A stretch of DNA of 63,122 nucleotides, the filler included, from Dirinaria sp. TL-2023a (Eukaryota): the NCBI GenBank assembly GCA_051941275.1. It is 8 parts of 8 records of this genome, joined end to end, with 100 filler letters (N's around TTAATTAATTAA, not from the genome) between each part and the next. Parts side by side here need not be neighbours in the genome. Positions count along the whole stretch, not along the records: positions 7,950 to 15,783 come from JAVEBF010001266.1; 7 more parts are not named here. The stretch is one strand, 5' to 3'. The stretch's first letter is position 1. Every line of letters begins with the position of its first letter. The translations under genes were made by a program, and so were the position numbers. Positions 1,051 through 37,514 of the stretch are shown piece after piece. The notes below the pieces were generated by a model. It was given only the letters and a program-made list of their open reading frames with translations, was not told the DNA's origin and searched no databases.

Positions 1051-1324
1051 TGTCATGAATCTAGACCTGTAGCACCTTAGGTCAGGTCACATGACTCCCT
1101 GAACCCTGAAGAAAGGTCCTTGATATGTGATTTGGCCTATACCAGATGTTTTGTTAGAGGTGGTTTGGTTTTGCCTTATCAGACCTAGCGTCCCCGAACC
1201 GATATTACTTCGAGCCCCTATTTGAGTTTTCCTGTAGATAGATTTCCTTTCCTTTTCTTCTTCATAGTTAGTGTCCTAGTCTATTTGTACCCATATGCCA
1301 TTGAGCGCTGTGCAGGCCCTGACA
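1051..1324 (+). repeat. 5' LTR, shared with the upstream mutated copy
   Basis: TGTCA...TGACA. 12 substitutions versus 6936-7209 by manual alignment. Confidence 0.95.
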
Positions 1325-1326
1325 TT

Positions 1327-1337
1327 ACACTAACTAT
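1327..1337 (+). promoter_or_regulatory. Self-priming primer-binding site
   Basis: ACACTAACTAT, 2 nt after the LTR, is the exact reverse complement of ATAGTTAGTGT at 1264-1274 inside the LTR. Confidence 0.8.
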
Positions 1338-1419
1338 CAACCTTACCTTTGCACTCGTCGGCGTTGCACGAGTAAACCAAGCAATCGCAAGAAAAGACCT
1401 TATACTTATAGGAACCAGT

Positions 1420-2928
1420 ATGCCTAGGCAGGTATCAGACCCCCGAGCCCAGCTCACTCAGGCCTCCTCTGTCGCCAATTATGAACCCATTGACGATGCG
1501 GCCTACCTCCCTCAGATGGTGAAAGACCTATTAAAGAAGACGGCAAACCGCCGCGTGTCGGTACTGCCAGAAGAATCGGAAGACTCTCCGTCGGGAGCAG
1601 ATCAAGCAGACTCCCCGAATTTCATCAATACTGTCGACCAATTGAAGCATTGGGTCCGTAACGACGGCAATGCAGTTCTCGACCTTATTAAGGAATATCG
1701 ATTGGAGCGCGACGCAGCATTGCGCTGCCTAGAAGATTGGAGCACTATGTTGAACATGAGAGATAAGGCAATGGATCAGGCCAGACGGGCCCAAGATAGA
1801 CTTCAAGTGGCTAAACAAGATTTTGAGAATGAGAAGGCTATGAATTTAAGTCTCAATGATCAGTTGCAAGAAAAGGATGATGTGGTACGAGATCGCGATA
1901 TTGAGATATCGGCATTGAAAGAGCAATTGCTCGTTGCCGGGGTTGTTGACTCTGATGGAAACCCGAATCCCCTCGGTAACGAACGTCAACATCGGCGTCA
2001 GCGAAGCAGAAGCAGAAGCCGATCGTCTATGACTTCCTCCTCACGTGCAAGGAAGTCTGCTAAGGTGCCAGACCCTCCAGTACTTACTGACGGCAATGAC
2101 CCCACCTACATCAATTGGCGTCTGCAAATGACGGACAAGCTTCGCATCAATGCGGACCACTTCTCTAATGAGGCAGACAAGGCGGCCTATGTTTGTTTAC
2201 GGGTAGGCGGTGACGCCGCAGACCATATCAATGCTTATCGGATTAATGACCCTGACTACTTTAAGAACCCTCAACAAGTCATGGGAGCACTAAACAGCAT
2301 TTACGAGGATCCGAACCGTCAGGAAAATGCTAGACAAGAATTTAAGCGCCTAAAAATGCATCCGGATACTCCTTTCCATACCTTCTATGTTCAATTTCAC
2401 CGTTGTGCCACCGTTGCCGCCATACCATCGGACTATGTTATGATGGAATTAAAAGAGAGGGTTCTTCCGCGCATGCAAAAGACGATGACTGACAATCCAC
2501 CTAATGCAACAACATTAGATGAGTTGAGGACGTACTTGACTCAACTGGATAATCGTCAACGTCATTTCATTGCAAATCGGGCAAACAATAAATCAGAAAC
2601 AGGCACGAGTGGAGCTGCTTCGGTTTCTGCCAGTGGTGCTGCTACTTTAAAGCCTTCAGCCAATGCACCTATTCGTGGCTCAACACCTGTGGCAACTACA
2701 CCTAACCCACCACGTTTTCGGGACAGTACCCCAGTCCATACTAGTCGACCCTACATTTCGGCATCAAAGGATACCCTCGAACGTAATCTATGCAGGAAAT
2801 GCGGTGAAACCGGTCACTATGCCAACGATTGCCCGCACCCTCGCATCAACCAAGAAGCTCGCATTCACGAGGTTGCCATTGACGGGGAAGACGAAGACTC
2901 TGCTAGTCAACAGTCGGAAAACGAGTAG
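1420..2928 (+). CDS. gag: Retrotransposon Gag
   Basis: First ATG downstream of the LTR in this frame is at 1420 (MPRQVSD). Coiled-coil region, PDPPVLTDG..PTYINW capsid-region motif, CRKCGETGHYANDC zinc knuckle. Confidence 0.92.
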   Translation: MPRQVSDPRAQLTQASSVANYEPIDDAAYLPQMVKDLLKKTANRRVSVLPEESEDSPSGADQADSPNFINTVDQLKHWVRNDGNAVLDLIKEYRLERDAALRCLEDWSTMLNMRDKAMDQARRAQDRLQVAKQDFENEKAMNLSLNDQLQEKDDVVRDRDIEISALKEQLLVAGVVDSDGNPNPLGNERQHRRQRSRSRSRSSMTSSSRARKSAKVPDPPVLTDGNDPTYINWRLQMTDKLRINADHFSNEADKAAYVCLRVGGDAADHINAYRINDPDYFKNPQQVMGALNSIYEDPNRQENARQEFKRLKMHPDTPFHTFYVQFHRCATVAAIPSDYVMMELKERVLPRMQKTMTDNPPNATTLDELRTYLTQLDNRQRHFIANRANNKSETGTSGAASVSASGAATLKPSANAPIRGSTPVATTPNPPRFRDSTPVHTSRPYISASKDTLERNLCRKCGETGHYANDCPHPRINQEARIHEVAIDGEDEDSASQQSENE

Positions 2929-5900
2929 CCGCCGGCAGTGACGCACCGGTTGGCGAAGTAGTCATATCGAGCAATGCATTTGATCAGGGACCACACGATC
3001 GACCTCCCTTGTTGGCCGATTGCTCTCTAACCTTATTGGGTAAAAGATATGACTCCATGGCTTTAGTGGATACTGGCTCGCAAGTATATTCCGCTATCGA
3101 CGAGGAGACGGCCGATGAGGTATGCAGATTCTTAGGCCTACAACCTATACCCCTTTCGAGACCTCGCCCGGTCAGGGGATTCAATGGAGTGCTCAGCAAA
3201 AGGCCTATAACGCATGCTATATACCCCTCCCTGACTGTCAACAATCATTCGGAACTTACTTGCCCCATGCTGATTACTCAATTGGGCACTCATAAGGTCA
3301 TACTAGGGAAACCCTGGATGAACCGGCACGGCTTGAAGTTGGATATGGAGACGGACCGGGTAATTTTCAAGAAAAGAAAGTGTAGGGAGTTAGGATGCCG
3401 ATTCGAAGGAGCCTATAAGAATTCAATTCCACAAAAAGCAGTCCTACCTTCAGGAACTCCTACACCGACTTCTGCAGGAGCATCTTCCCCTGCAGTACCT
3501 AGCCTTCCGAGCTATACGATTTTGAAAAGGACACACAACATAGGTGGATCTAAGAAGAAGTCTGTGCCTACCTCGCTAGTGGTGAAACCCCCTACTACTA
3601 TTGCAAGTGTGCAGGAAGAAGGACCGGCCGATATTCAATTAGTTAGTGCGGCCGCATTCAACATGCTCTCCCAAAAGGAACGCCGCAATAAAGAAGGCCT
3701 CAAACTATTCTCCCTTACTATGTCACAGTTAGATCGAGAACTTCATCGTCGATCCAACACTGCAAAGAAGAAGAATGATGTCGGGCCGACAATATCATCA
3801 ATGGCTATGGAGGATATCATTAAGCTGATTCCCCCGGAGTATAAGGACTTAGCTGAGGCCTTCGATCCTAAGAAAGCAAAGGAGCTACCTCCCCATAGAC
3901 CCTATGACCACAAAATCGAGCTCACCGGTGATTCCAATCAACTACCTAAGAGCCGGGTCTATCCTATTTCGGACTACAAGCTACAGAAGTTAAAGGAGTA
4001 CCTTGATGAAAACCTAAAAAAGGGCTTCATTAGTCCGAGCTATGCCCCTTATGCTTCCCCGATATTGTTTGCCGCCAAACCTAATGGAGGACTACGAGTT
4101 TGCGTTGACTATCGCAGGCTGAATGCCATTACCAGGAGGAACCGATATCCTATACCCCTTATTGAGGAGACCCTTGCCAAAGTCATAGGATGTAAGTACA
4201 TGACGAAGTTGGATGTCATTGCCGCGTTCAATAAGCTTCGTATGCATCCTGATAGCGAAGAGCTCACAACCTTCATCACTTCGCTAGGGGCCTATAAATA
4301 TCATGTGCTTCCTTTTGGGTTAACTGGCGGTCCGTCAAATTATCAACACTATATGAACGACGTGCTATGGGATTATATCAATGAATTCGTGTCAGTATAC
4401 CTGGATGACATTCTGATTTATAGCAAGACCCGCAAGGAACATGTAAGGCATGTGCGGTTAGTGCTACAAAAGCTTATTGATGCCGGCTTACAAGTGGATA
4501 TCCAAAAATGCGAGTTCCATGTGCAGGAGACTACCTTTCTTGGGGTGCTACTTTCTACCGAAGGCCTGCGCATGGATCCTAAGAAGGTGCAAACGGTGGT
4601 TGAGTGGCAAACCCCTACTCGATTGAAAGAAGTCCAGAGCTTCATCGGTTTCTGCAACTTCTATCGGCGATTCATCAAAGGCTTTTCGCGCATAGTCAGG
4701 CCTATGGTTGCATTGACCCAGAAAGATGCCATATTCCATTGGAACGAAGCGTGCCAGGAGGCATTCACTCAATTGAAGCAAGTAATCACCACCGCCCCCG
4801 TGCTTAGGCATTTCGACCGCAACCGCAAGGCAGTTCTAGAAACTGACTCCTCGGACCATATTAATGCCGGAGTCCTTTCTCAATACGATGACGAAGGCAT
4901 GTTGCATCCAGTAGCCTTCTACTCCAAGAACATGTTGCCTGCGGAATGCAACTATGAAATATACGATAAGGAGCTGCTTGCTATAATAAGATGCCTGGAG
5001 CATTGGCGACCGGAACTTGAGGCTACCGAGTTACCTATTGAAATATTCACTGATCATAAGTCTTTGGAGCATTTCATGACCACGAAAGAGTTAACTCGTC
5101 GTCAGGTTAGATGGGCAGAAAAGCTTAGTGAGTATAACTTCAAAATAATGTACCAAACCGGAGCCAAGAATGTCAAGGCCGATGCACTCACACGTCGCCC
5201 CGGAGATCTGCCACAAGGTGATGATGACCGCCTTGCATATCAACATCGCACCTTGTTGACCCCTGACCGTCTGAAAATTCATGCAATGGAACCCGATCAA
5301 CAAGCCCCAATACATGACCGCATACTGACGGCCAACCGCGACGATAAGGAGTGCAACAAAGTCCGTCAACAAATCGAGCTGGGGGACACTTTTTACAATA
5401 GGATCCGGCTCAGGGATTGCACTGTTAGGGACGGTATTCTATACTATCATAACCGCCTATGGGTGCCGGGTAACATGGATCTACTAGTAGGTCTTCTTAA
5501 GGAGACACACGAAGCCCCTATGGTAGGCCACCCTGGTGTGTCTAGGACCCTAGACTTAGTCCGAAGGTATTACTTTTGGCCTAGGATGAGGCAAACCATT
5601 ATTCAGTTCGTACGAAACTGCTATGGTTGCCTAAGATCAAAAGCGCCTTTGGATAAGTATAATGGCTTACTAGTACCTGCCTCAGTACCGCAACAACGAT
5701 GGCAAGATATCTCTATGGATTTCATTACCGGGCTTCCTATGTCAAGAAGGAAAAATGCAATCTGCACCATCATCGATAAGTTAACTAAGGAGAGGCACTA
5801 TATACCTTGCACGGCGTTGGAGGAAGGTACTACTGCAGAGGCAACAGCGGAGATACTGCTACAATGGGTATTTCGCACCCACGGTCTTCCAAACTCAATA

Positions 5901-6854
5901 ACATCAGATCGAGGACCTCAATTCGTGGCTACCGTTTGGAAGTCACTATGTAGGCGTCTAGGCATTGATTGCAAGTTGTCAACTGCCTTCCACCCTGAAA
6001 CTGATGGCCAAACGGAACGCGCAAACCAAGATGTGGAAAAGCAGCTCCGCCTATATTGTAATCACATGCAAGACGACTGGGTTGATTTACTACCCATTGC
6101 GGAGTTTGCAGACAACAATGCCGTTTCTACAGCAACAGGCATGACTCCCTTCTTTGCAAACAAAGGATACCATCCGCGCATGACCTTTTCACCGGACGAT
6201 ACCAAATATGCTACTGCCCGCGATCGCATGCAGGCAGCAAAGGCTGAAAGTATCGCTGGTACCATGCAAAATGTCCTGGAATTTATGCGCTCCACGGCGC
6301 AGGATTCCCAGCAGGCAATGAAGGATCAAGCTGATAAGCACCGCAAAGAAGTTTCCTATGAAGTCGGCGATCAGGTATTTCTATCCAGTAAGAACATCAA
6401 CACCGATAGACCATCAAAGAAGCTAGAAGACAAGATGTTAGGACCCTTCCCGATAGTCAAACGCCATGGTATTGCCTATGAGCTAAAACTACCTGACACA
6501 ATGAGAATACATAATGTATTCCATCCTAACCTGCTTCGCAAAGATCCTGGTGACCCCTTACCAGGCCAGGTACAAGAACCTCCTGACAAAATAGTAACCG
6601 ACGAGGGCGATGAATGGGAGCTTGCAGATGTTGTCAACTCGAGGTGGCACCATGGGCGCTTACAATACCAGTGTCAATGGGTTGATTGGAAGCACCGCGA
6701 TAGGACTTGGTACCATACTGATGGGGGTGAGTTTAAGCACGCAAAGGATATAACTAACGACTTCCACACACGATATCCTGACAAGCCTGGCGGCGCAAAT
6801 AACAAGGCTCCAAACACCGACAACAAAGTCAACAAACGCAAGAGCTCAATATAA
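2907..6854 (+). CDS. pol: Retrotransposon Pol (protease, RT, RNase H, integrase, chromodomain), in the -1 frame relative to gag
   Basis: The frame is open from 2907. Motifs: LVDTGS protease, YLDD RT, ETDSS/DKELLA RNase H, HHCC plus DDE-type integrase, C-terminal EWELADVVNSRW..LQYQCQW chromodomain. Confidence 0.96.
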   Translation, partial: STVGKRVAAGSDAPVGEVVISSNAFDQGPHDRPPLLADCSLTLLGKRYDSMALVDTGSQVYSAIDEETADEVCRFLGLQPIPLSRPRPVRGFNGVLSKRPITHAIYPSLTVNNHSELTCPMLITQLGTHKVILGKPWMNRHGLKLDMETDRVIFKKRKCRELGCRFEGAYKNSIPQKAVLPSGTPTPTSAGASSPAVPSLPSYTILKRTHNIGGSKKKSVPTSLVVKPPTTIASVQEEGPADIQLVSAAAFNMLSQKERRNKEGLKLFSLTMSQLDRELHRRSNTAKKKNDVGPTISSMAMEDIIKLIPPEYKDLAEAFDPKKAKELPPHRPYDHKIELTGDSNQLPKSRVYPISDYKLQKLKEYLDENLKKGFISPSYAPYASPILFAAKPNGGLRVCVDYRRLNAITRRNRYPIPLIEETLAKVIGCKYMTKLDVIAAFNKLRMHPDSEELTTFITSLGAYKYHVLPFGLTGGPSNYQHYMNDVLWDYINEFVSVYLDDILIYSKTRKEHVRHVRLVLQKLIDAGLQVDIQKCEFHVQETTFLGVLLSTEGLRMDPKKVQTVVEWQTPTRLKEVQSFIGFCNFYRRFIKGFSRIVRPMVALTQKDAIFHWNEACQEAFTQLKQVITTAPVLRHFDRNRKAVLETDSSDHINAGVLSQYDDEGMLHPVAFYSKNMLPAECNYEIYDKELLAIIRCLEHWRPELEATELPIEIFTDHKSLEHFMTTKELTRRQVRWAEKLSEYNFKIMYQTGAKNVKADALTRRPGDLPQGDDDRLAYQHRTLLTPDRLKIHAMEPDQQAPIHDRILTANRDDKECNKVRQQIELGDTFYNRIRLRDCTVRDGILYYHNRLWVPGNMDLLVGLLKETHEAPMVGHPGVSRTLDLVRRYYFWPRMRQTIIQFVRNCYGCLRSKAPLDKYNGLLVPASVPQQRWQDISMDFITGLPMSRRKNAICTIIDKLTKERHYIPCTALEEGTTAEATAEILLQWVFRTHGLPNSITSDRGPQFVATVWKSLCRRLGIDCKLSTAFHPETDGQTERANQDVEKQLRLYCNHMQDDWVDLLPIAEFADNNAVSTATGMTPFFANKGYHPRMTFSPDDTKYATARDRMQAAKAESIAGTMQNVLEFMRSTAQDSQQAMKDQADKHRKEVSYEVGDQVFLSSKNINTDRPSKKLEDKMLGPFPIVKRHGIAYELKLPDTMRIHNVFHPNLLRKDPGDPLPGQVQEPPDKIVTDEGDEWELADVVNSRWHHGRLQYQCQWVDWKHRDRTWYHTDGGEFKHAKDITNDFHTRYPDKPGGANNKAPNTDNKVNKRKSSI

Positions 6855-6920
6855 TGGCTAAAAAACTTGGTTGAAGCCTGGTCAAACCTTATTTTAACCG
6901 CAACAGGGACGTTGCTTATT

Positions 6921-6935
6921 GGAGGGGGGGGGTAA
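6921..6935 (+). promoter_or_regulatory. Polypurine tract
   Basis: G-rich run ending GGTAA directly before the 3' LTR. Confidence 0.9.
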
Positions 6936-7209
6936 TGTCATGAACCTAGACCTGTAGCACCTTAGGTCAGGTCACATGACTCCCTGGACCCTGAAGGAAG
7001 GTCCTTGGTATGTGGTTTGGCCTATACCAGGTGTTTTGTTAGAGGTGGTTTGGTTTTGCCTTATCAGGCCTAGCGTCCCCGGACCGATATTGCTCCGGGC
7101 CCCTATTTGAGTTTTCCTGTAGATAGATTTCCTTTCCTTTTCTTCTTCATAGATAGTGTCCTAGTCTATTTGTACCCATATGCCATTGAGCGCTGTGCAG
7201 GCCCTGACA
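6936..7209 (+). repeat. 3' LTR
   Basis: 274-bp direct repeat of 1051-1324. Confidence 0.96.
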
Positions 7210-7949: not shown

Positions 7950-10046
7950 ATGTATGTTTGATTTTACGCTTTAAATCTATTATTAATTATATCTCGAAAT
8001 ACTTTAGAATGCGATCATTTCTAATTAGTTTGAAGTAAAAAACATTGAATGACTCAATGCTCATTCTAAAATGATAATATTCATGATTGATTTTTTTTAT
8101 TGATTTTATCGTACACACTCTTCAATATTTTCAAAATCATTAAATAAATTCGAAAATATAGTTTTTTCGAAATACGATGTGCATTGATGTGAGTAACAGT
8201 TTCATCGTCAATGCGTTGCATAACATAAATTGTTTTAATTGTCTCTGAGACAAAATGATTCTCATTGAATATTAATTTGTCGATTATTTTGTTGAATCAA
8301 TTCTCATATATCGAGTTCTTGTCATCTATAAACATAGATGAGTCAGATATTTTGATTAATCGTTGTATATATGTTTGATTATTTGTTTGAGAGACATGAG
8401 ATATTTCGTTTTATAATATTTCGCGCTGTGCACGCGCTGCGTTAAGCTCTGCAATCAATCGTTCGTTTTCGATTTTTAGTTGATCGACACTCTACGATGC
8501 TTCGCGTTGAGCACGTGCGAGGACGAGTTCGACAGTCAGTCGTTCATTTTCGACTCTTAGTTGATCGACATCGATTTTTAATTGATTATTTTTCTCATTT
8601 AGACGAGTATTCTCGTTCTCAGCACGATCGTGTCTGAATTGCAATTTGATTCAATCGTTTCTTTATTTAATAATTTTTTCTCGAGCTATATTTTGACGTT
8701 TTTGTGCGTCAATGACAATGTCGTTTGCTGTATCGCAATTCGAGACTAATTTATTTTAGTTATTCACACAATAAAAAGCGATATCGCGTTCAATGCGTTT
8801 TATTTTTATCGAGTTCAACATTTTCGTCGAACGTCTGACAACTTAATATTGCAATTGAGAAACTATATAAATATTCTTCGACGTGTTTGCGTTTTCAAAC
8901 TCAAACGACGCATTATTTGATATTATCGACACGCGAAGTTTCTCTGTTCTTTTCAATAAATACTGTAATCGTTGTGCTGAGATTATTGTCAACTCGTCAG
9001 ACGTCTCAGACAGCAATTGTCGCGTCGACGTCTCTTTTTCTTTCTGCTCTTGAGTCGAAATCTAAATCTGTGTCTATGCTCTCTCGTTAACGTCTTTAGT
9101 CATTACTGTATCGTCAATCGTCGTACTTCTTTTTTATTACCTCGCGAAACAACGAGGATAAAAGATAAAATGTGTCAAAGACCCAACCTTGGTTAGATAG
9201 GTTTCCCAATGGTAAAAGTCCCGGCATGGCCAAAAGACTAACTAAACCAAGTCAAAGAACTTGGTGCCTATCTTATTATTTATGTTTCAGGATCGTAACA
9301 TTACCTCGATCCCTCGGCTTAGCTTCGTTCCGAAGCTAGCGTTGAGAGAATTGAGGAGATTCAAGATTCTGTAGAGGATGCTAGCTAATCAGAGTGACTC
9401 ATGACGCTTAGGAATCAATGCACGTCTATCGGAACAAGTAGTCGCCCCGAGCTTAGATAAGCTCTCAGCTGACAGACCTCGTCGAAAAACAATCCTTTAA
9501 GCGTTCGAGCTGAGATTCGAACTCAGAATCTTGCGACCGTGTTGACTTGATTTAATGTCAGAGACCCAACCTTGGTTAGATAGATTTCCCAATGGTAAAA
9601 GTCCCGGCATGGCCAAAAGACTAACTAAATCAAGTCAAAGGACTTGGTGCCTATCTTACTACTTATGTTTCAGGATCGTAACAAAATGTATAAACAACAG
9701 TGTTCAGTTCAATTGTAAATAACAACACAGATGTTGTTGCGATTGTTTGAAACTCGTAAAATTGCAAAACGAGATAAGAGGTTTGATGTTTTGTGTAATG
9801 TCAAGATCGATGTAGAAAATATGATCTATGTAGATGTTATCAACTAAATACACAAAGCATGAAAAAGAAAAAAAATCTATAAACTAAAATTAGACATAAT
9901 ATGAGTGTGTGAGTGTTGAACTCTGATCGGCCGAGTCTATCGTCACTTCGAATGCGTTAAACTCGATCAGGTCAAAACACAACATCACACACAAAAATCT
10001 CGTAGAAAATAAGCCGGATAATATCAGTGAGAACATGCTCGTAACA
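7950..10046 (-). mobile_element. Heavily degraded chromovirus relic (5' LTR about 9799-10046, leader, gag), related to the intact element
   Basis: Minus strand at about 8297-8365 reads KISDSSMFIDDKNSIYEN*, versus intact Gag KVPDPPVLTDGNDPTYINW. The LTR/leader junction TGACA-TTACACAAAACATCAAACC resembles TGACA-TTACACTAACTATCAACC. Confidence 0.75.
9173..9683 (-). mobile_element. 511-bp TRIM-like non-autonomous LTR element
   Basis: Two 128-bp direct repeats (9173-9300, 9556-9683; TGTCA...TAACA), 255-bp non-coding interior, 5-bp TSD AAATG (9168-9172, 9684-9688), minus-strand purine-rich tract GAGGGATCGAGGTAA next to the 3' LTR. Confidence 0.9.
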
Positions 10047-11048
10047 TGAAAAAGTTTTTAAAAATACTTTGAAAGATGTTTTGAAACAAATAATTACGAG
10101 ATGATGAAATGTTATATAAACAAATATGTGATGTCATTGTTGATATTATTTAATCATCGCGTTTTTACATTTAATCGTTGTATTTTCGTTTTTCGTAAAA
10201 TATATCAGACTTCATTTTCGTACTCATCAGAATCATATTTAGTCATTGTCGATGCGATATCTGATAATGTCAGAGTCATATCTAGTTATTGTAAGTGCGA
10301 TATTTGAAAATATTAGAGTCATATCTAGTCATTTGAGATGTGACGATCTCATATTTCGCAGTTTCAGAGTCAATTGTGAGATTGCATCTATAGAATCTAG
10401 AACTCTAGAAATTCTAGAAATTTTTATGTCATTGCGATACATTTTGATGCATACTTGCGATAATTTTTGTCTCAAAAATCTCGCGTTATTCTCGTGATTA
10501 TTGAATTAGGTTATCTGGTATATTAATAAATGAGGGGGTAGGTTCAAGGAAGGTTTGCACTATCCCAATTTGGTTAGCTTTGGCGCTAGCGGGCGCGTTC
10601 CATCCGCAGTGCCAGGTCACTGTAAGGTAAGGACCAAAAATTGTATATTTACGACCTGATTTTCGTGGGACTGCCTCGGGCAACCTACGCAGCGTGATGT
10701 CGTGATACTGTGTAGACACTTTAAATCTGTTGAAGTCTCTGCTCTTCCTTGCCTTCTCCGCGGACCGTCGAATATCCTCAATGATTTGCTATCTGGAAAC
10801 GCTGTCCTGGGCAAGTATCGCAAATGATAACTGGGGATAGCCCGTGGGTCTCCAAGCAGCGATTGGACATATTTGCTGGCAATGAAGCAAGTCAAGTTCT
10901 ACGACGCGCAATCGATACATGGATATTTAATTTGCTGATATGTACAAATCTCCACACCCGCTGGGGGTGTTGCATTATGGCCAGAGGTTTCATGCCTGCC
11001 TTGAAGCCCCTTTTGTACAGACAAATATTGCTTTGTTTAGCCAGCCAC

Positions 11049-12219
11049 CTATATTCCACGTTTCATCACGCTTCTAATGTCCCAAACCAGCAACCTTTCG
11101 TCCCATCCGCAACTAGCACACCAACCTTCTGCACCGAAAAGACACCAGTCCACTCCCATCACAAATTCTGTATGCCTTTCCATCCTCCCAGTCTCCTCTC
11201 CAAAGCCTCCCAGCATCAAATCTCCCCTCTCGTCCTTCACACTGTTACCGTCTGTCCATGCCCGGCAGGTCATGTCATAGCTCCCACTCAGTAACACATC
11301 GCTAAGGTGCGGGCTCCATGCTAGTTTTCTCACAGCGTAGTCATGACCCACGAAGATAGTCAACGGTCCGTTACCGGGAGCTCTGATGTCGAAAGTGCGG
11401 ATGTAGCGGTCTACCCCAGCGACAGCGACAACGCTGGAGCGGTATTTATTCCAGTCATGTGTTAAGGCTTCGGACGGTGGTGTCACAGCGGGATGTTGTT
11501 GGAGGCGGTTCAGGCCCAGACCTTGTGGGGTACGGTGCAGCGGAATGGTAAGGGTGAGGTGATTAGAAGCTGAAGATGGGGTTCGAAGGTCAAAAAGGCG
11601 AAAATGTGAGTCTGACGATACGGAAGACAGGATGGACGGTGAATGAGGTGAGAAGGCGGCACTGTACGTGCAGGAATGGGTTGGGAGTGTGAGCAGGGAG
11701 TCAGCCCGCTGAGGAGACCACTGCATGTTGGTGTAAGATCGAAACTCTACAGTCGCTCGGTTGACAAGGGGCTAGGCATACGATCTTGATTGAGCCATCC
11801 CATGAGCTAGAACAGAAGGTGTCCTTGGTGACCAAGTTCCAGTGGACCGCGAAGACCTCACGCTTATGCTCCTGCCATGACTGGATGGGGAACTCGTTGA
11901 GTGCTACATCAAAGAGCTTGATGGATCCATCCCCTGTTGCTACCACAACTTGATTCTCGTGGACTTCTGACCACGCGAGGTCATAGAGGGAGTCTTGAGT
12001 ATCAAACCTTAGCAAGTCGTGAGCGGCAGAAAAGAGCTGCGGACACCCAACGTACTGATTTTCTACGACAATACCCTTCGGCGTCAACCCAAGGATGTAC
12101 AGCCTGCCATTGCCAACCAGACCAAAATTGGCAGAAGATGCAACTGCTAGTCGAGAATCGAAGAATGGTGAGTATTTCACGGCATAGCCATTGAAGCTTT
12201 CAGTACGAAATTCGAGCAT
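11049..12219 (-). CDS. PEX7: Peroxisomal targeting signal 2 receptor (WD40), 3 exons
   Basis: MLEFRTESFNGYAVKYSPFFDSRLAVASSANFGLVGNGRL N-terminus, WD40 repeats (SSSWDG, SGSYDMT, HTEFV..DW), two GT-AG introns linking the ORF-track pieces. Confidence 0.93.
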
Positions 12220-12436
12220 TGTACTTGATGCGTTACCTGGAGCGCCAGCAGTACCGTTGAAGGCGCATGACATTAGTGCGTACCGCCCTCTACTACCAAA
12301 CTTACCTTGGATCTACGAGTACCTGGATGCAATCTCACATATGTAGATACTCATGTAGATTTAGACTACATTGATGACCCAAGTCAATTGCAGAAATTAC
12401 CTATTGCAAGTCCGCGGCCTTCTAATCACTAGACAG

Positions 12437-12484
12437 ATTTTTATTTTTTTATTTTTTTATTTTTTTATTTTTTTATTTTTTTAT
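12437..12484 (+). repeat. (ATTTTTT)n simple repeat
   Basis: Direct reading. Confidence 0.85.
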
Positions 12485-12827
12485 GTTTGGACAACACGAT
12501 AGGGTCGCCAGGTAGTTGATTAATCTATCAATTCTCTCAATTTAAAAAACATTGACCATGTTCAGATGTAAAATATCAAAATTTTAACATTTTGTTACTA
12601 GTTTTGCCTTCTCAAATCTCAATGGATATGCAATAGATAAAGACACAGTAGTCTTGTGCAGCACAAGGGGTACTTGGATCCTGGCCGAAAATCATGCTGT
12701 GCTTGAGGGTCAGCCAACACTTATTATCAATCGTTTTTGTAAATGAATATTCAGAAATCTTAAACAAGTTCTACGCCTTCGATCATATCATGAGTATATT
12801 GTAAACTTTGGTACATGCAATTAAGGA

Positions 12828-14354
12828 TCAATTCCACCAAAAACTGACGCTAAAGCTTGTGGTCAAGCTCCTCACATAATGCCACCACCCAACTGGAATA
12901 TAGAGACTTTCGCCTTCGCCGAGAATAGTCTCGACATATCTCGCTTCTTTGAATAGCGGAAAGTGTCGCCCAAGCTCATCCGCGTTACCTTCCACATCTA
13001 GTTCACTTGTATTGCTCATATCGACACCAGCCTCGCTGCCCATTGCGTAGAGCCTCTGAGTCTGGTCAGGGTGGTACAGTCGAACGTACTTTTTCCCAAC
13101 GACTTGACAGAGAATGTTGTGGTAAGGGTCTGTATGGAGGGGGGACACTGTGCCAGCTGGGCCAAGCCAGGCATTGAGAGTTGGCTCGGGAAGTTTAGGC
13201 GGAGGCGCTTTGCCAGCAGTTCCGTCAGCCACCGATTGCGGAGGCTCGCTGAAGCAGTAATCTGGAATAGAGATATCATTTCGTAATGACGGAATTTGAG
13301 AGAAAAGGTCATGTTGGGCTAGATAACCAATTTCATCCTTCCCGTGTGGTTGCAAGTTTGATCCCTTATACATCTGTTCTTCTCTATTTGCATCGGAATC
13401 GTTGGTGGCAGTTCTCTCCCCGCGGTTCTCCTGTAGCATGAACTCGTCCATGAATGCTCCAAAGCGGATGATCCTTTGACCCCATCCTTCATCAGTGTAG
13501 CTCCTCCCCACCTCCACCGGCACCAATCTTCTGCCCCCGAACGTCTTCTCTCTCAGATAAGTTGGACTCCGCCACGGCCTTTCATTCAATGCTGGCCAAT
13601 GCTCCAAAGCACCCTTGATAACCAGTGGGCCTTTGCTGTCTTGAAGGTGTCTCTCGAATGCTGAGATCGAAAGTCTTGTGGCCGACGACATTTGATGTTG
13701 GATAAAATCGGACTGGTGAAATCCTTTCATGTTAAGTGGGAAAGTATCCTTGTACTGAACTTCGTGCGTGAGAAGCTTCCGGCGCTTCTTGCGCAATTGT
13801 TCGTCTCCGTAGCCGTGCGGATAAATGTTCATACCCTGTTCTAAGTAGAGGCGTAGGTGGTCAATGATCGCATCGATCATATTCCTGCGACTGTCTGCAC
13901 CAGCCATAATGATAGCCATATCCAGCACGTTCACCGCCTCTTGCACCCAGTCTTCAAGTGGGTCATGCGAGTTCTTGCTCTTAAAACAATCATCATGGGG
14001 CCGCCCGCCCCCACCATTCTTACCTAGAGTGTCCACTAGAGTGTTCCTATCCTCAAAACGACTGTTCTCTGAGAGCGCACTACATATCCCATTTTGTATG
14101 CAATATATTGCATACACAAGACTCGCATCGGTGAAGAGCCGCCGCCAGCAATCAGGTACTTGGCTGTAGGGCCATGTGTAAAGCTTTGAGCGGGCAAGGC
14201 GGATCACGGACTCAGGATAGGTGGGGAGAGCCAGCAGTACAGACTTAGGACAGCCAAGCAGAGCATCATCGCTGGTTGGTGGTGCAAGGAGTGTTTCGAG
14301 TGAGCTTGCGAGACTGTCATTGAGATCCTGTGAGTGCATGAATCCCTCCGGCAT
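12828..14354 (-). CDS. JmjC-domain protein, JMJD5/KDM8-like
   Basis: RLVPVEVGRSYTDEGWGQ, GYLAQHDLF, LHTDPYHN (HxD), GWWHYVRSL..SVSFWW. Confidence 0.88.
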   Translation of the reverse strand: MPEGFMHSQDLNDSLASSLETLLAPPTSDDALLGCPKSVLLALPTYPESVIRLARSKLYTWPYSQVPDCWRRLFTDASLVYAIYCIQNGICSALSENSRFEDRNTLVDTLGKNGGGGRPHDDCFKSKNSHDPLEDWVQEAVNVLDMAIIMAGADSRRNMIDAIIDHLRLYLEQGMNIYPHGYGDEQLRKKRRKLLTHEVQYKDTFPLNMKGFHQSDFIQHQMSSATRLSISAFERHLQDSKGPLVIKGALEHWPALNERPWRSPTYLREKTFGGRRLVPVEVGRSYTDEGWGQRIIRFGAFMDEFMLQENRGERTATNDSDANREEQMYKGSNLQPHGKDEIGYLAQHDLFSQIPSLRNDISIPDYCFSEPPQSVADGTAGKAPPPKLPEPTLNAWLGPAGTVSPLHTDPYHNILCQVVGKKYVRLYHPDQTQRLYAMGSEAGVDMSNTSELDVEGNADELGRHFPLFKEARYVETILGEGESLYIPVGWWHYVRSLTTSFSVSFWWN

Positions 14355-14640
14355 CAAGTGTCCTTTGAAGCGTTCAAAGTATCGTATGATTCCGTAGTGG
14401 CTCTGTTACCCATTTTCTCGTATCCAAATACCTCCCGCCTTTTCGACGTCTTGATGCCTCCAAGGATGTTTTGTCTTAGGTTACAATAACACATTCCGCC
14501 TGCGGGAATGTCAAGATCGCATGCAGCATCAGCAGCACGATCGAAGTGACCTCAGGCAGGATCCATGACATCCGGGGTTAGCACAGGTTTAGTTCAGCTC
14601 ACCCCTCAGCGTTCGGGGTAAAGTAAGATAAGATAAGATA

Positions 14641-14778
14641 CTCGTATTCACCTACTTTCTTGGGAGGGTTAGGGTTAATCCCCACCAAAATTTCTACAAC
14701 CCTACTTGACTTTGGGTTATGAAGATCTTGGTGGTAAAACCCTAACCCTCCCAAGAAAGTAAAATAGGTGAATACGAG
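14641..14778. mobile_element. 138-bp foldback/MITE-like element
   Basis: CTCGTATTCACCTA/TAGGTGAATACGAG and ACTTTCTTGGGAGGGTTAGGGTT/AACCCTAACCCTCCCAAGAAAGT inverted arms. Confidence 0.7.
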
Positions 14779-14928
14779 AAAGGTACCATAGAAACAACCT
14801 CAGTGTCGAGCAAATTTTATGTTGGAAATTCTATGTGCTTATCTCCATGTCACGTGTCGAGTAGACTTACTCGATAATCACGTGTCGAGAAAGATTACTC
14901 GAAATAACGTGTCGAATAATATTATTCG

Positions 14929-15654
14929 TGTTATGGACCAAATGATGGGCCAAATATAGTGACATTACCTATAAGGTAGATAGTCAAAATAGCTAATAAT
15001 AATCGAGATGCCCTGGGAAATCTGAGTGCAATCGCCTGCTAAATAGATCATATCTATCTTAAAGAGTTTCGTCATAGACTCGAAAAATATGTGAAATCGA
15101 CATTGATGCGAAATGCGTCAAATGCATGATGCGAAGTCATAAAAGTAAACACTGAACCGATGCCAAAATACTGTTGCGTCTTCTACTATCAATCTAGGTT
15201 TCCAGGTATCTAATAAGAGATGCTAGAGTTTGATCTGTTGAAGAGATTCAGTTCAGGAGCAACGAGTGTCAACGTGATAGAGTAAGTATCACACAAAATA
15301 AGTACTTAGTACTTGTAACAGTAGTAGACAAGTTAACTGAGATTGAACACGATGTCAGAAGAGCGTCGTGTTGAAGATCTATATAGTAGTTCTTCTGCGC
15401 TAAATGATCAAGAGGTCTAAGCATCAGATTCTCTTGAACTACTTGAACTAATCAAGATGTCTAAGCATCAGGTCCTCTTGAACTACTTGAACTAATCACG
15501 TGATTATCAAGTTCAAGCGCCAAGAAGATGCGCCTCCTTGATCATGATGCGTCCCTGTTCCTCAGACTACCGCATAAAGGTAGGTCACAGCACAGGGTCG
15601 CAACAAATATTAATACTCAAAGTGCTAGTATCAAGTATGTGAAAAATTATAACA
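14929..15654. mobile_element. 726-bp solo LTR
   Basis: TGTTAT...ATAACA ends, 5-bp TSD ATTCG (14924-14928, 15655-15659), internal 44-bp tandem duplication at 15407-15494. Confidence 0.82.
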
Positions 15655-15884
15655 ATTCGACACGTGATCGATTTTTTATATATTATAAATGAGTCGGTCT
15701 CTTAATTTTTAAATAATAATTATGCGTTTTTTTTTTTTTTTTAATTCTTACTCGATTCAACATTCACAAGGGGTCTATGCGAGNNNNNNNNNNNNNNNNN
15801 NNNNNNNNNNNNNNNNNNNNNNNNNNNTTAATTAATTAANNNNNNNNNNNNNNNNNNNNNNNNNNNNNNNNNNNNNNNNNNNNG

Positions 15885-34934: not shown

Positions 34935-37514
34935 ATGGCTGAAGCAGTGGTCATTGTCGGACTCCTCGCTTCGATCGCTTCTCTGATCGAGCTCAGCGCC
35001 AAAGTCGTCTCTCGATTACACGATTTCAACTCTAAGTCTTCCGAAGTCCCCAAGTCGTTTCATTTCCTGTCAACCCGTTTATCTTTGTTGACGACAACAC
35101 TCCAACATATTCAGTCTCAGGCAGAGAGTGGCCGCTTTTCAGATGATACAACAAAAGCTCTGAAATCAGTTGTCGACGATACTTTCAAACAAGTGTCTGA
35201 TATACAGATATCTCTGTTTAAAGTCATCTCATCAGATAGTGTTTCGAAGCTTGAGCGGACTTTGAAAGCGTTGAAGAGTCTGGTCAAGGAAGATAAAGTA
35301 CAGAAAGCATTGGAAAAGATATCTAAAAATAATGAATTTTTGGTACTGCATCAGACGACACAGCATGTCGACATGGGTGATCGCATTCTGAAAGCATTGC
35401 CGAAGCTGAGTGTAACATCAGCAACACTATCGAACTCTTCGTCGAACATACCGTTTCGACGAGACTCAGATTTCGTCGATCTGGGGGTTATTCTTGATCA
35501 GCTTCATCAAAAATGCACTTTGCCGGCGTCTCGGACGGCGCTCGTCGGCTTCGGCGAAGTAGGGTAAGTGAAGACAAGCAGTTGTAGATACGGCGAATCG
35601 AGGTACTGACTTCAGGTCAGAAAGTCGCAGCTCGTCATCGAACTCGGCTATCGAATTCGAGAACGATCGTCTGAGACGTGGATGCTCTGGATGCATGCTG
35701 GAATCTCGGCACGGTTCGAGCAGAGCTTTCGCGATATCGCCGATTTCATCGAGATTTCTGGGCGGCAGAATCTCAAAGTGAATGTCTTCCGACTTGTTCA
35801 TGATTGATTACGTAATAAAAAGATTGGGCAGTGGTTGCTGGCCCTCGATAACGTCGACAATTCTGATCTTCTTTCCGAGGCTGGAGATGCTGGCGAGCGA
35901 GAACAAGGTGCCGGGGTGAATGGTGAACGTCGGCAGCCGATGTCAGTGTATCTTTCTCAAACTCAGAATGGATCGATTTTGGTCACTAGTCGGAGCAGAC
36001 ACGCTGCATTGAAGTTGGTGGAAGAAAAGGATATAGTGGCACTACAATCAATGATCGCGACGCACGCGCAGTCTCTGTTCGAGAGGAAATTGGGGTCGCT
36101 CGATCAGGGTGATGACACTGCGGAATTAGCAGCAGCACTGAAGTTTATGTCGCTCGTTATCGTTCAAGCGGCGGCATATATCTCTGAAAGGTCACCACGA
36201 TATTTCGTGCAACAATATCTCGAAGACTATCGAAAAAGCGATCGTAAAAAGACGAGTCTTCTGAATTACGAAGAAGGACAGCTTCGAAGAGACTGAGAGG
36301 CTCGAAATTTCATTATAAATATCTGGCAGATCTCGTTCGAATATATAAGACAGAAACGGTCATTCGCATCTAATCTACTCTCGTTGATGAGCTTTTTTGA
36401 ACGACAGGGTATTCGAGAAGTTCTAGTTCGAAACCGAGCCGAAATCGAAAATGATCATCGAAGTCAGAAAGATCACGATGAGCATGATAACAGAGAAGAA
36501 GAGGAAGATGTTGAAGATAATGTATCGAAAAGCAGTGAGGACGGTGAATTTGAAGACGACGTGCAGACGTTAAGGGACTACTCATTTCTCTTCGTTGGTA
36601 CAAACGGAACTTTTGAAATGCATGCGCTTGTGCAATTGACCACGCGAAAATGATTAGAGGCCAACGAAGAACTCGAGCAGTGGAAGCAGCGTTACATCAA
36701 GAAGCTTTTCGCTGAGTTCTCGATCGAAGAGTTTCAGAATTGGATCTACTGCCATGCACTCTTTCCTCATGCAAAATCGGCAGTCACACAACGGTCACAG
36801 GCAGAAGAGTCACTGAGAGAATGGGCTTCATTTCTTTATCGTGCGGCATGATACGCGTGAAGAAAAGGAAGCATAACTGAGATTATCGACCTATTCTTTA
36901 CGGCGATGAAAGTGAGGAAGAAAATACTTGACGAAGCGCACGAGGAGACTTTAAGCAGTATGAACATGATAGATCTAGCATATAGCTTAGGAGGACGCTG
37001 GAGAGAAGCGGAAAAGCTGCAGTTGCAAGTGATGAAGACAAGGACGAGAGTGCTGGGCAAGGAACATTCAGACACGCTAGTCAGCATGAGTAATCTTGCC
37101 TCGACATACTGGGAACAAGGACGGTGGAAGGAGGCGGAAGAGCTGCAGGTGCAAGTGATGGAGACAGAGAAGAGGGTGCTGGGCAAGGAACATTCAGACA
37201 CGCTAATCAGCATGAATAATCTTGCCTTGACATACTGGAAACAAGGACGGTGGAAGAAGGCGGAAGAGCTGGAGATGCAAGTGATGGAGACAAGGACGAG
37301 AATGCAGGACAAGGAGCATTCCGACACGCTGGCTAGCATATTCAATCTGGCATTTACATTCAAGTATCAAAGTCGTTATGAGGAGGCCGTCTCTCTAATA
37401 GAAACCTGCTTCGAATTACGAAAGCGGATTCTTGGCCCTGAGCATCCAGATACGAAGCTCTCGCTTCGGGCTTTTCAGGAGTGGAAAAAGGAAGCAGAGG
37501 AACATAAGCAGTGA
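34935..37514 (+). pseudogene. NLR-like (STAND) gene: SesA/HeLo-like N-terminus, NB-ARC-type NTPase, TPR repeats; five in-frame TGA
   Basis: P-loop ALVGFGEVG-KSQL across an intron (35564-35620), WLLALDNVD, SILVTSR, MHALVQ, 42-aa TPR units LGKEHSDTL. TGA at 35805, 36294, 36651, 36849 and 36858. Confidence 0.88.
37047..37424 (+). repeat. 126-bp TPR-coding tandem repeats
   Basis: Units start at 37047, 37173 and 37299. Confidence 0.85.

Follow-up and report, generated by a model that had tools for sequence, protein, structure and literature searches.

The stretch of DNA analysed here, which we call the window, comprises 63122 bases and consists of eight contigs of about 7.8 kb with N spacers between them. 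The element described below is located in the second of these contigs (7950-15783), which also carries a host JmjC gene that clusters with Ascomycota in a protein atlas. It extends from 9173 to 9683, measures 511 bp in total, and is bounded by two 128-nt direct repeats that a repeat finder gives as 95% identical. Its parts are listed in Table 1, together with those of a Ty3/gypsy element in contig 1 and of the older DNA in which the short element lies.

Table 1. Coordinates of the 511-bp element, of the older sequence around it and of the Ty3/gypsy element in contig 1.
Feature	Position	Strand	Description or basis
Ty3/gypsy element	1051-7209	+	LTRs 1051-1324, 6936-7209; frames of gag (1189-2928) and pol (2907-6854)
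Self-primer (putative) of the contig-1 element, with its primer site	1264-1274 pairs with 1327-1337	+	11-nt self-complement
Hypermutated block, nearly without CC and GG, broken only by the 511-bp element	7950-10400		CC+GG observed/expected
Remains of gag from an older element of Ty3/gypsy type, lying downstream of the insertion in the sense direction	8093-8977	-	tblastn
Target-site duplication, copy 1	9168-9172		AAATG; the five bases preceding the first repeat equal the five following the second
3' LTR, 128 bp	9173-9300	-	repeat finder; six transitions relative to the 5' LTR
Polypurine-like tract, immediately upstream (in sense) of the 3' LTR	9301-9320	-	last 15 nt GAGGGATCGAGGTAA
Internal domain, 255 bp, non-coding	9301-9555	-	six frames stopped; no Gag/Pol similarity
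tRNA-like T-arm hairpin, acceptor-like stretch and one base	9502-9526	-	5-bp stem, loop of T-loop consensus
Primer-binding site (putative), complement of own LTR	9542-9554	-	13 nt; one base separates it from the LTR
5' LTR, 128 bp	9556-9683	-	repeat finder; inferred U3 9683-9639, R-U5 9638-9556
Putative self-primer, inferred first 13 nt of the transcript	9626-9638	-	perfect inverted repeat with the primer site, and fold
Target-site duplication, copy 2	9684-9688		AAATG

On the plus strand both repeats start with TGTCA and end with GTAACA; in the sense orientation, which is minus, they read TGTTAC...CTGACA. The minus-strand orientation was assigned because the primer-site complement and the purine counts both favour it over the plus orientation. 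Read on the minus strand, the 15 bases that precede the 3' repeat include 12 purines, versus seven of 15 in the plus orientation, and the best self-complement in the plus orientation, used as a control, is 5 nt long. The purine tract is interrupted and is weaker than that of the contig-1 element (14 of 15). No open frame exceeds 54 codons in the six frames of the element, and the best tblastn match to the Gag or Pol of the contig-1 element has an E value of 0.58. The U3/R border was placed solely from the position of the self-complement, which gives an inferred U3 of just 45 nt. The initial annotation had described a complete miniature LTR element with 128-bp LTRs, a 5-bp target-site duplication, a polypurine-like tract and no open reading frame, and all of these components were recovered. 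Its completeness is borne out by this anatomy and by an island of base composition, described below, that marks it as inserted as a unit.

TRIMs, short for terminal-repeat retrotransposons in miniature, were initially reported from plants; ants, bees, cestodes, bivalves, and fungi followed. Like the TRIMs characterized in the available text of PMC6934838, the element is shorter than 1000 bp, has repeats within the range of 100-250 bp with TG..CA ends and a 5-bp target-site duplication, and has a non-coding interior with a primer site and a purine tract. The definition in that text also includes a primer site complementary to a tRNA, and in this respect the element is unlike TRIMs: TGG-type sites, the kind that was checked, are absent after either repeat in either orientation, and the primer site complements the element's own LTR. 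It is the only copy among the eight contigs of the window. No LTR pairs were found elsewhere, in contigs 3-8, and the 255-bp interior has no other match in the window. Searches with primer-gap-primer site patterns and transition-tolerant LTR patterns gave no match in public metagenome, genome, and viral contig collections; those collections contain few fungal genomes, so these empty scans say little.

The element integrated as one unit into a retrotransposon relic that was already hypermutated. To its left the ratio of observed to expected CC+GG is 0.00, 0.02, and 0.13 over 1.2 kb, and to its right 0.12 and 0.19 over 0.7 kb. The three parts of the element have ratios of 1.68, 0.55, and 1.46, and the change is sharp and falls exactly at the LTR ends. 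An island of CC and GG within a stripped block means that the element arrived later than its surroundings and as a unit, through at least one integration of LTR-bounded DNA. It is younger DNA inserted into a dead element, and the stripping of CC and GG around it is attributed to the C-before-C hypermutation of this genome. The two LTRs differ at six positions, all of them transitions and three in a CC/GG context, and their divergence is unusable as a measure of age.

Only gag is visible of the surrounding relic. It matches residues 108-378 of the contig-1 Gag at 25.7% identity (tblastn, E 4e-17), and the insertion lies about 195 bp upstream of it, on the same strand and within the hypermutated block. 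The earlier proposal that the element is nested in the leader of an older chromovirus relic holds insofar as the insertion is within the relic block and upstream of gag; the leader and the LTR of the relic, however, are indistinguishable at this place. It was also considered whether the downstream LTR of the short element belongs to the relic as its 5' LTR, in a tandem like the one seen in contig 1. This reading was rejected: the target-site duplication argues against it, no primer site follows that LTR, and CC and GG are at normal content in the LTR but nearly absent from the relic on either side.

One feature of the element is found where a tRNA primer site would be expected. On the minus strand the 5' repeat is followed by a single T and then by a 13-mer (9542-9554) that is the exact reverse complement of 9626-9638 inside the 5' LTR. 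When the LTR was shuffled 20000 times, no shuffle gave a 13-mer at the primer-site position; the longest match reached was 11 nt, in seven shuffles. When 25-nt windows were slid along both strands of the remaining sequence of the window, 10 of 123090 yielded 13-mers, and these ten are attributed to one 13-mer that occurs in both contig-1 LTRs and was read at five offsets. A match of 13 nt anywhere in 125 kb is unremarkable, then; at the primer-site position it is remarkable. The first description of the element as having a self-complementary 13-mer and no TGG-starting primer site was accurate on both points.

The folding of the leader agrees with this arrangement. RNA from 9638 to 9500 has a predicted energy of -44 kcal/mol (z -4.06), and none of 200 shuffles was equally stable. 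In both the minimum free energy fold and the centroid fold the helix of primer and primer site is present: pairing of the 5' end with the primer site closes off a structured U5. The equivalent of the primer 13-mer in the 3' LTR (9243-9255) differs by one base, a G where the 5' LTR has an A, and the pair there would be G-U. The direction of hypermutation points to G as the base present when the element inserted; a change at the mirror position of the primer site may have followed, or the pair may have been G-U. Pairing is kept both ways, and the present match of 13 out of 13 may have consisted of 12 Watson-Crick pairs and one G-U pair at the time of insertion.

A comparable layout is found in the Ty3/gypsy element of contig 1. 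This element has LTRs of 274 bp with TGTCA...TGACA ends, gag and pol frames that are apparently open, and domains for a zinc knuckle, protease, reverse transcriptase, RNase H, integrase, and a Tf2-type SH3 domain; its best relative of solved structure is Ty3 Gag-Pol. Its primer site begins 2 nt past the 5' LTR and complements 11 nt of that LTR, a length of at least 11 nt being reached in 12 of 20000 shuffles. This genome therefore also has an autonomous element with a self-complementary primer-site layout. The leader of the contig-1 element folds with the same topology as that of the TRIM, with an energy that is not unusual (z -1.08). A match to the Chromo domain (E 0.015) reaches 15.6 bits against a cut-off of 25.1, and a chromodomain is only hinted at by this similarity. 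In the contig-1 element gag and pol share 22 nt (2907-2928) and pol is read in frame -1 with respect to gag; this overlap suggests expression by frameshifting, not from a single open reading frame as in Tf1. Directly before the full element lie the 3' end of pol and an LTR of another copy, in a tandem with a period of 5885. When the repeats 1-1324 and 5886-7209 are compared, 95 of their 96 differences are G-to-A or C-to-T changes in the first copy, and 85 of these 95 stand in a GG or CC context. The repeats thus carry a one-sided hypermutation of the CpC type, with the same signature as the block around the short element in contig 2.

The interior of the short element contains a further structured feature. 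On the sense strand, 16 bases beyond the primer site, a hairpin spans 9526 to 9510, with a perfect 5-bp stem and a 7-nt loop of T-loop consensus; an acceptor-like stretch of 7 nt and a single base come directly after it. Five consecutive T's (9489-9485) begin 13 bases beyond that last base. The hairpin is the only one of the T-arm kind on either strand of the window. The stretch preceding it we take to resemble the variable arm of a class II tRNA, and the minus strand of 9485-9548 as a whole has the look of the 3' half of a tRNA, in sense orientation and directly behind the primer site. ARAGORN at default settings calls no tRNA gene in the window, and Rfam searches with E values up to 10 find no tRNA in 8000-11000 or in 9440-9700. 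Calls made over the element by ARAGORN at relaxed thresholds are considered noise because 105 such calls were made across the 63-kb window. The hairpin is not itself a primer site for a tRNA because it is in the sense orientation.

Self-priming is described as common in the Tf1/sushi group from fungi to vertebrates, and it has been predicted for the plant Tcn1 and TAR lineages as well as for Maggy, Skippy, Cft-1, and Boty (available text of PMC10085805, PMC4600332, PMC6317226, and PMC6934838). On balance we favour, with moderate confidence, the reading that 9173-9683 is a non-autonomous, TRIM-like miniature LTR element that is self-primed in the style of Tf1/sushi. A complement to its own LTR at the position of a tRNA primer site indicates that reverse transcription probably starts from the end of the element's own RNA.

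By analogy with Tf1, a transcript would start at or near 9638, within the 5' LTR, and its first 13 or so bases would fold back on the primer site, 1-2 nt beyond the end of the LTR. Next, RNase H from a helper reverse transcriptase would cut behind the duplex, and the freed 3' end would prime minus-strand cDNA through U5 and R, yielding about 71 nt of strong-stop cDNA. Plus-strand synthesis would be primed by the purine-rich tract (9301-9320), and the 5-bp duplication would be made by the integrase of the helper. Gag, protease, reverse transcriptase with RNase H, and integrase would all be supplied in trans, presumably by a self-priming Ty3/gypsy element of the Tf1/sushi kind.

The helper had been proposed to be a chromovirus such as the element in contig 1. 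This element does offer a Ty3/gypsy organization with apparently open gag and pol and an 11-nt primer site of its own, but its Chromo match is below the cut-off and the LTRs of the two elements are unalignable (alignment score 29 versus 25.9 +/- 4.5 for shuffles, not above chance). Two junction motifs are common to both elements, CTGACA/TTA where the end of U5 meets the spacer and GAGG(A)TAA/TGT where the purine tract meets U3 (the slash marks the junction). These junctions are the sites at which integrase and RNase H act. The shared motifs would fit a helper of the contig-1 kind; the contig-1 element is a candidate for the type of helper and is not itself identified as the helper.

The main rival to self-primed transposition of a 511-bp TRIM is that a full-length self-priming Ty3/gypsy element inserted here and then lost its coding interior in place, in which case the 511-bp form never transposed and there is no TRIM family. 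Such a history would keep the mechanism of self-priming and would remove only the claim of a family. It is in keeping with the presence of a single copy in the window and with the lack of a match in the public contig collections, few as their fungal genomes are, and the self-complementary primer site would simply have been inherited from the parent. Against it, the 255-bp interior has no trace of Gag or Pol and matches neither the contig-1 element nor the relic, and a tRNA-like hairpin is unexpected in a remnant composed of a leader and a tail. None of these points is decisive. We regard loss of the interior in place as rather unlikely, while giving it more weight than any other alternative to the self-primed TRIM.

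A second possibility is that the anticodon stem-loop of a host tRNA binds the primer site, as in Copia, Ty5, and most fungal Helenus elements, and that the match to the element's own LTR is incidental. Helenus, or TRIMp3, comprises TRIMs of fungi, animals, and plants with tRNA-derived sequence in their LTRs (Kojima 2024; PMC10886601). According to the available text of that paper, the fungal members occur in rusts and some Agaricomycetes, have tRNA-like LTRs and 5-bp duplications, mostly carry Copia-type primer sites complementary to tRNA anticodon loops, and are linked to Copia helpers. Like them, the element described here is a TRIM of a fungus, is flanked by a 5-bp duplication and has a tRNA-like piece. 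In Helenus, however, the tRNA-like sequence has A and B boxes and lies in the LTR, whereas here a T-arm-like hairpin lies in the interior and neither ARAGORN at default settings nor Rfam finds tRNA-derived sequence in the LTRs. The present LTR also pairs with the primer site, unlike that of Helenus, for which the author asked whether the tRNA-like part of the LTR was complementary to the primer site and reports no such match in the available text (PMC10886601). Priming by a tRNA fragment would leave to chance a 13-nt match to the element's own LTR at the exact position, which no shuffle reproduced, and the autonomous contig-1 element has the same arrangement in a different sequence; the window holds no tRNA gene for comparison. 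We consider this explanation very improbable. That the locus is not a retroelement at all is hardly credible: direct repeats 383 bp apart are formally a partial tandem duplication of 1.33 units of 383 bp with a chance inverted repeat, but the TG..CA ends, target-site duplication, purine tract, and self-complement are all at the positions they have in an LTR element, and the borders of the CC/GG island at the ends of the repeats mark foreign DNA that arrived later.

The self-primed TRIM can be compared most closely with the Tf1/sushi group. As in that group, a primer site just past the 5' LTR complements part of this LTR, the LTR has TGACA at its end, a 5-bp duplication is present, and a helix of primer and primer site closes the folded leader. 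The self-complement of Tf1 is 11 nt long, as is that of the contig-1 element, versus 13 nt in the TRIM. The TRIM also departs from the group in having no gag or pol, in starting its LTR with TGTTA in place of TGTCA, and in its short inferred U3. The fission-yeast Tf1/sushi elements are described as combining TGTCA...TGACA ends with self-priming (available text of PMC10085805 and PMC4600332), and the leader of Tf1 as forming a 'pretzel' with two extra duplexes beside the primer duplex (PMC10085805, available text). The central duplex of the pretzel occurs in the minimum free energy fold of the TRIM. In contrast to Tf1, the two side duplexes are no better than in shuffled sequences (fractions 0.41 and 0.35), and the same is true of the contig-1 element (0.32 and 0.83).

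A search of the full text of the literature found no self-primed TRIM or other non-autonomous self-primed LTR element. PMC8773270 tabulates one TRIM consensus from a lichen fungus. A self-primed TRIM is an expected derivative, a modest variant of known mechanisms. Such elements may form a family, of which a single copy is at hand. A much stronger claim can be made, namely that a self-primed TRIM family propagates in lichen-type ascomycetes, that the tRNA-derived 3' half behind the primer site is functional, perhaps as a signal for processing, packaging, or polymerase III, and that these elements add one more kind to the small-RNA-derived TRIMs Cassandra, Helenus, and Ajax and are the first non-autonomous LTR elements to be primed by their own LTR. 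This claim we hold to be doubtful, and put it forward only as speculation.

Self-priming makes an LTR element independent of host tRNAs, and it would evade any silencing based on tRNA fragments that is aimed at primer sites. If the self-primed reading is true, the minimal set of cis-acting sequences for a reverse transcriptase and integrase of the Tf1 type would consist of a pair of LTRs, a self-primer with its binding site, and a purine tract, and an element of 0.5 kb would be a convenient substrate for testing self-priming. Classifiers of TRIMs that rely on tRNA primer sites would overlook such elements. The presence of an unmutated element inside a CpC-hypermutated relic also provides a relative time marker for genome defence at this locus.

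Some minor features of the window concern the relic block and its repeats. The block poor in CC and GG is 2.5 kb long and stops sharply near 10400-10500, beside a WD40 gene. Within it there are three tandem units of 43 nt at 10227-10355 and a pair of 70-nt repeats, 81 nt apart, at 8420-8570. Elsewhere, in contig 5, a unit of 126 nt occurs three times in tandem at 36992-37369, with identities of 100, 88, and 76%; because 126 is a multiple of three, this unit may be a coding repeat.
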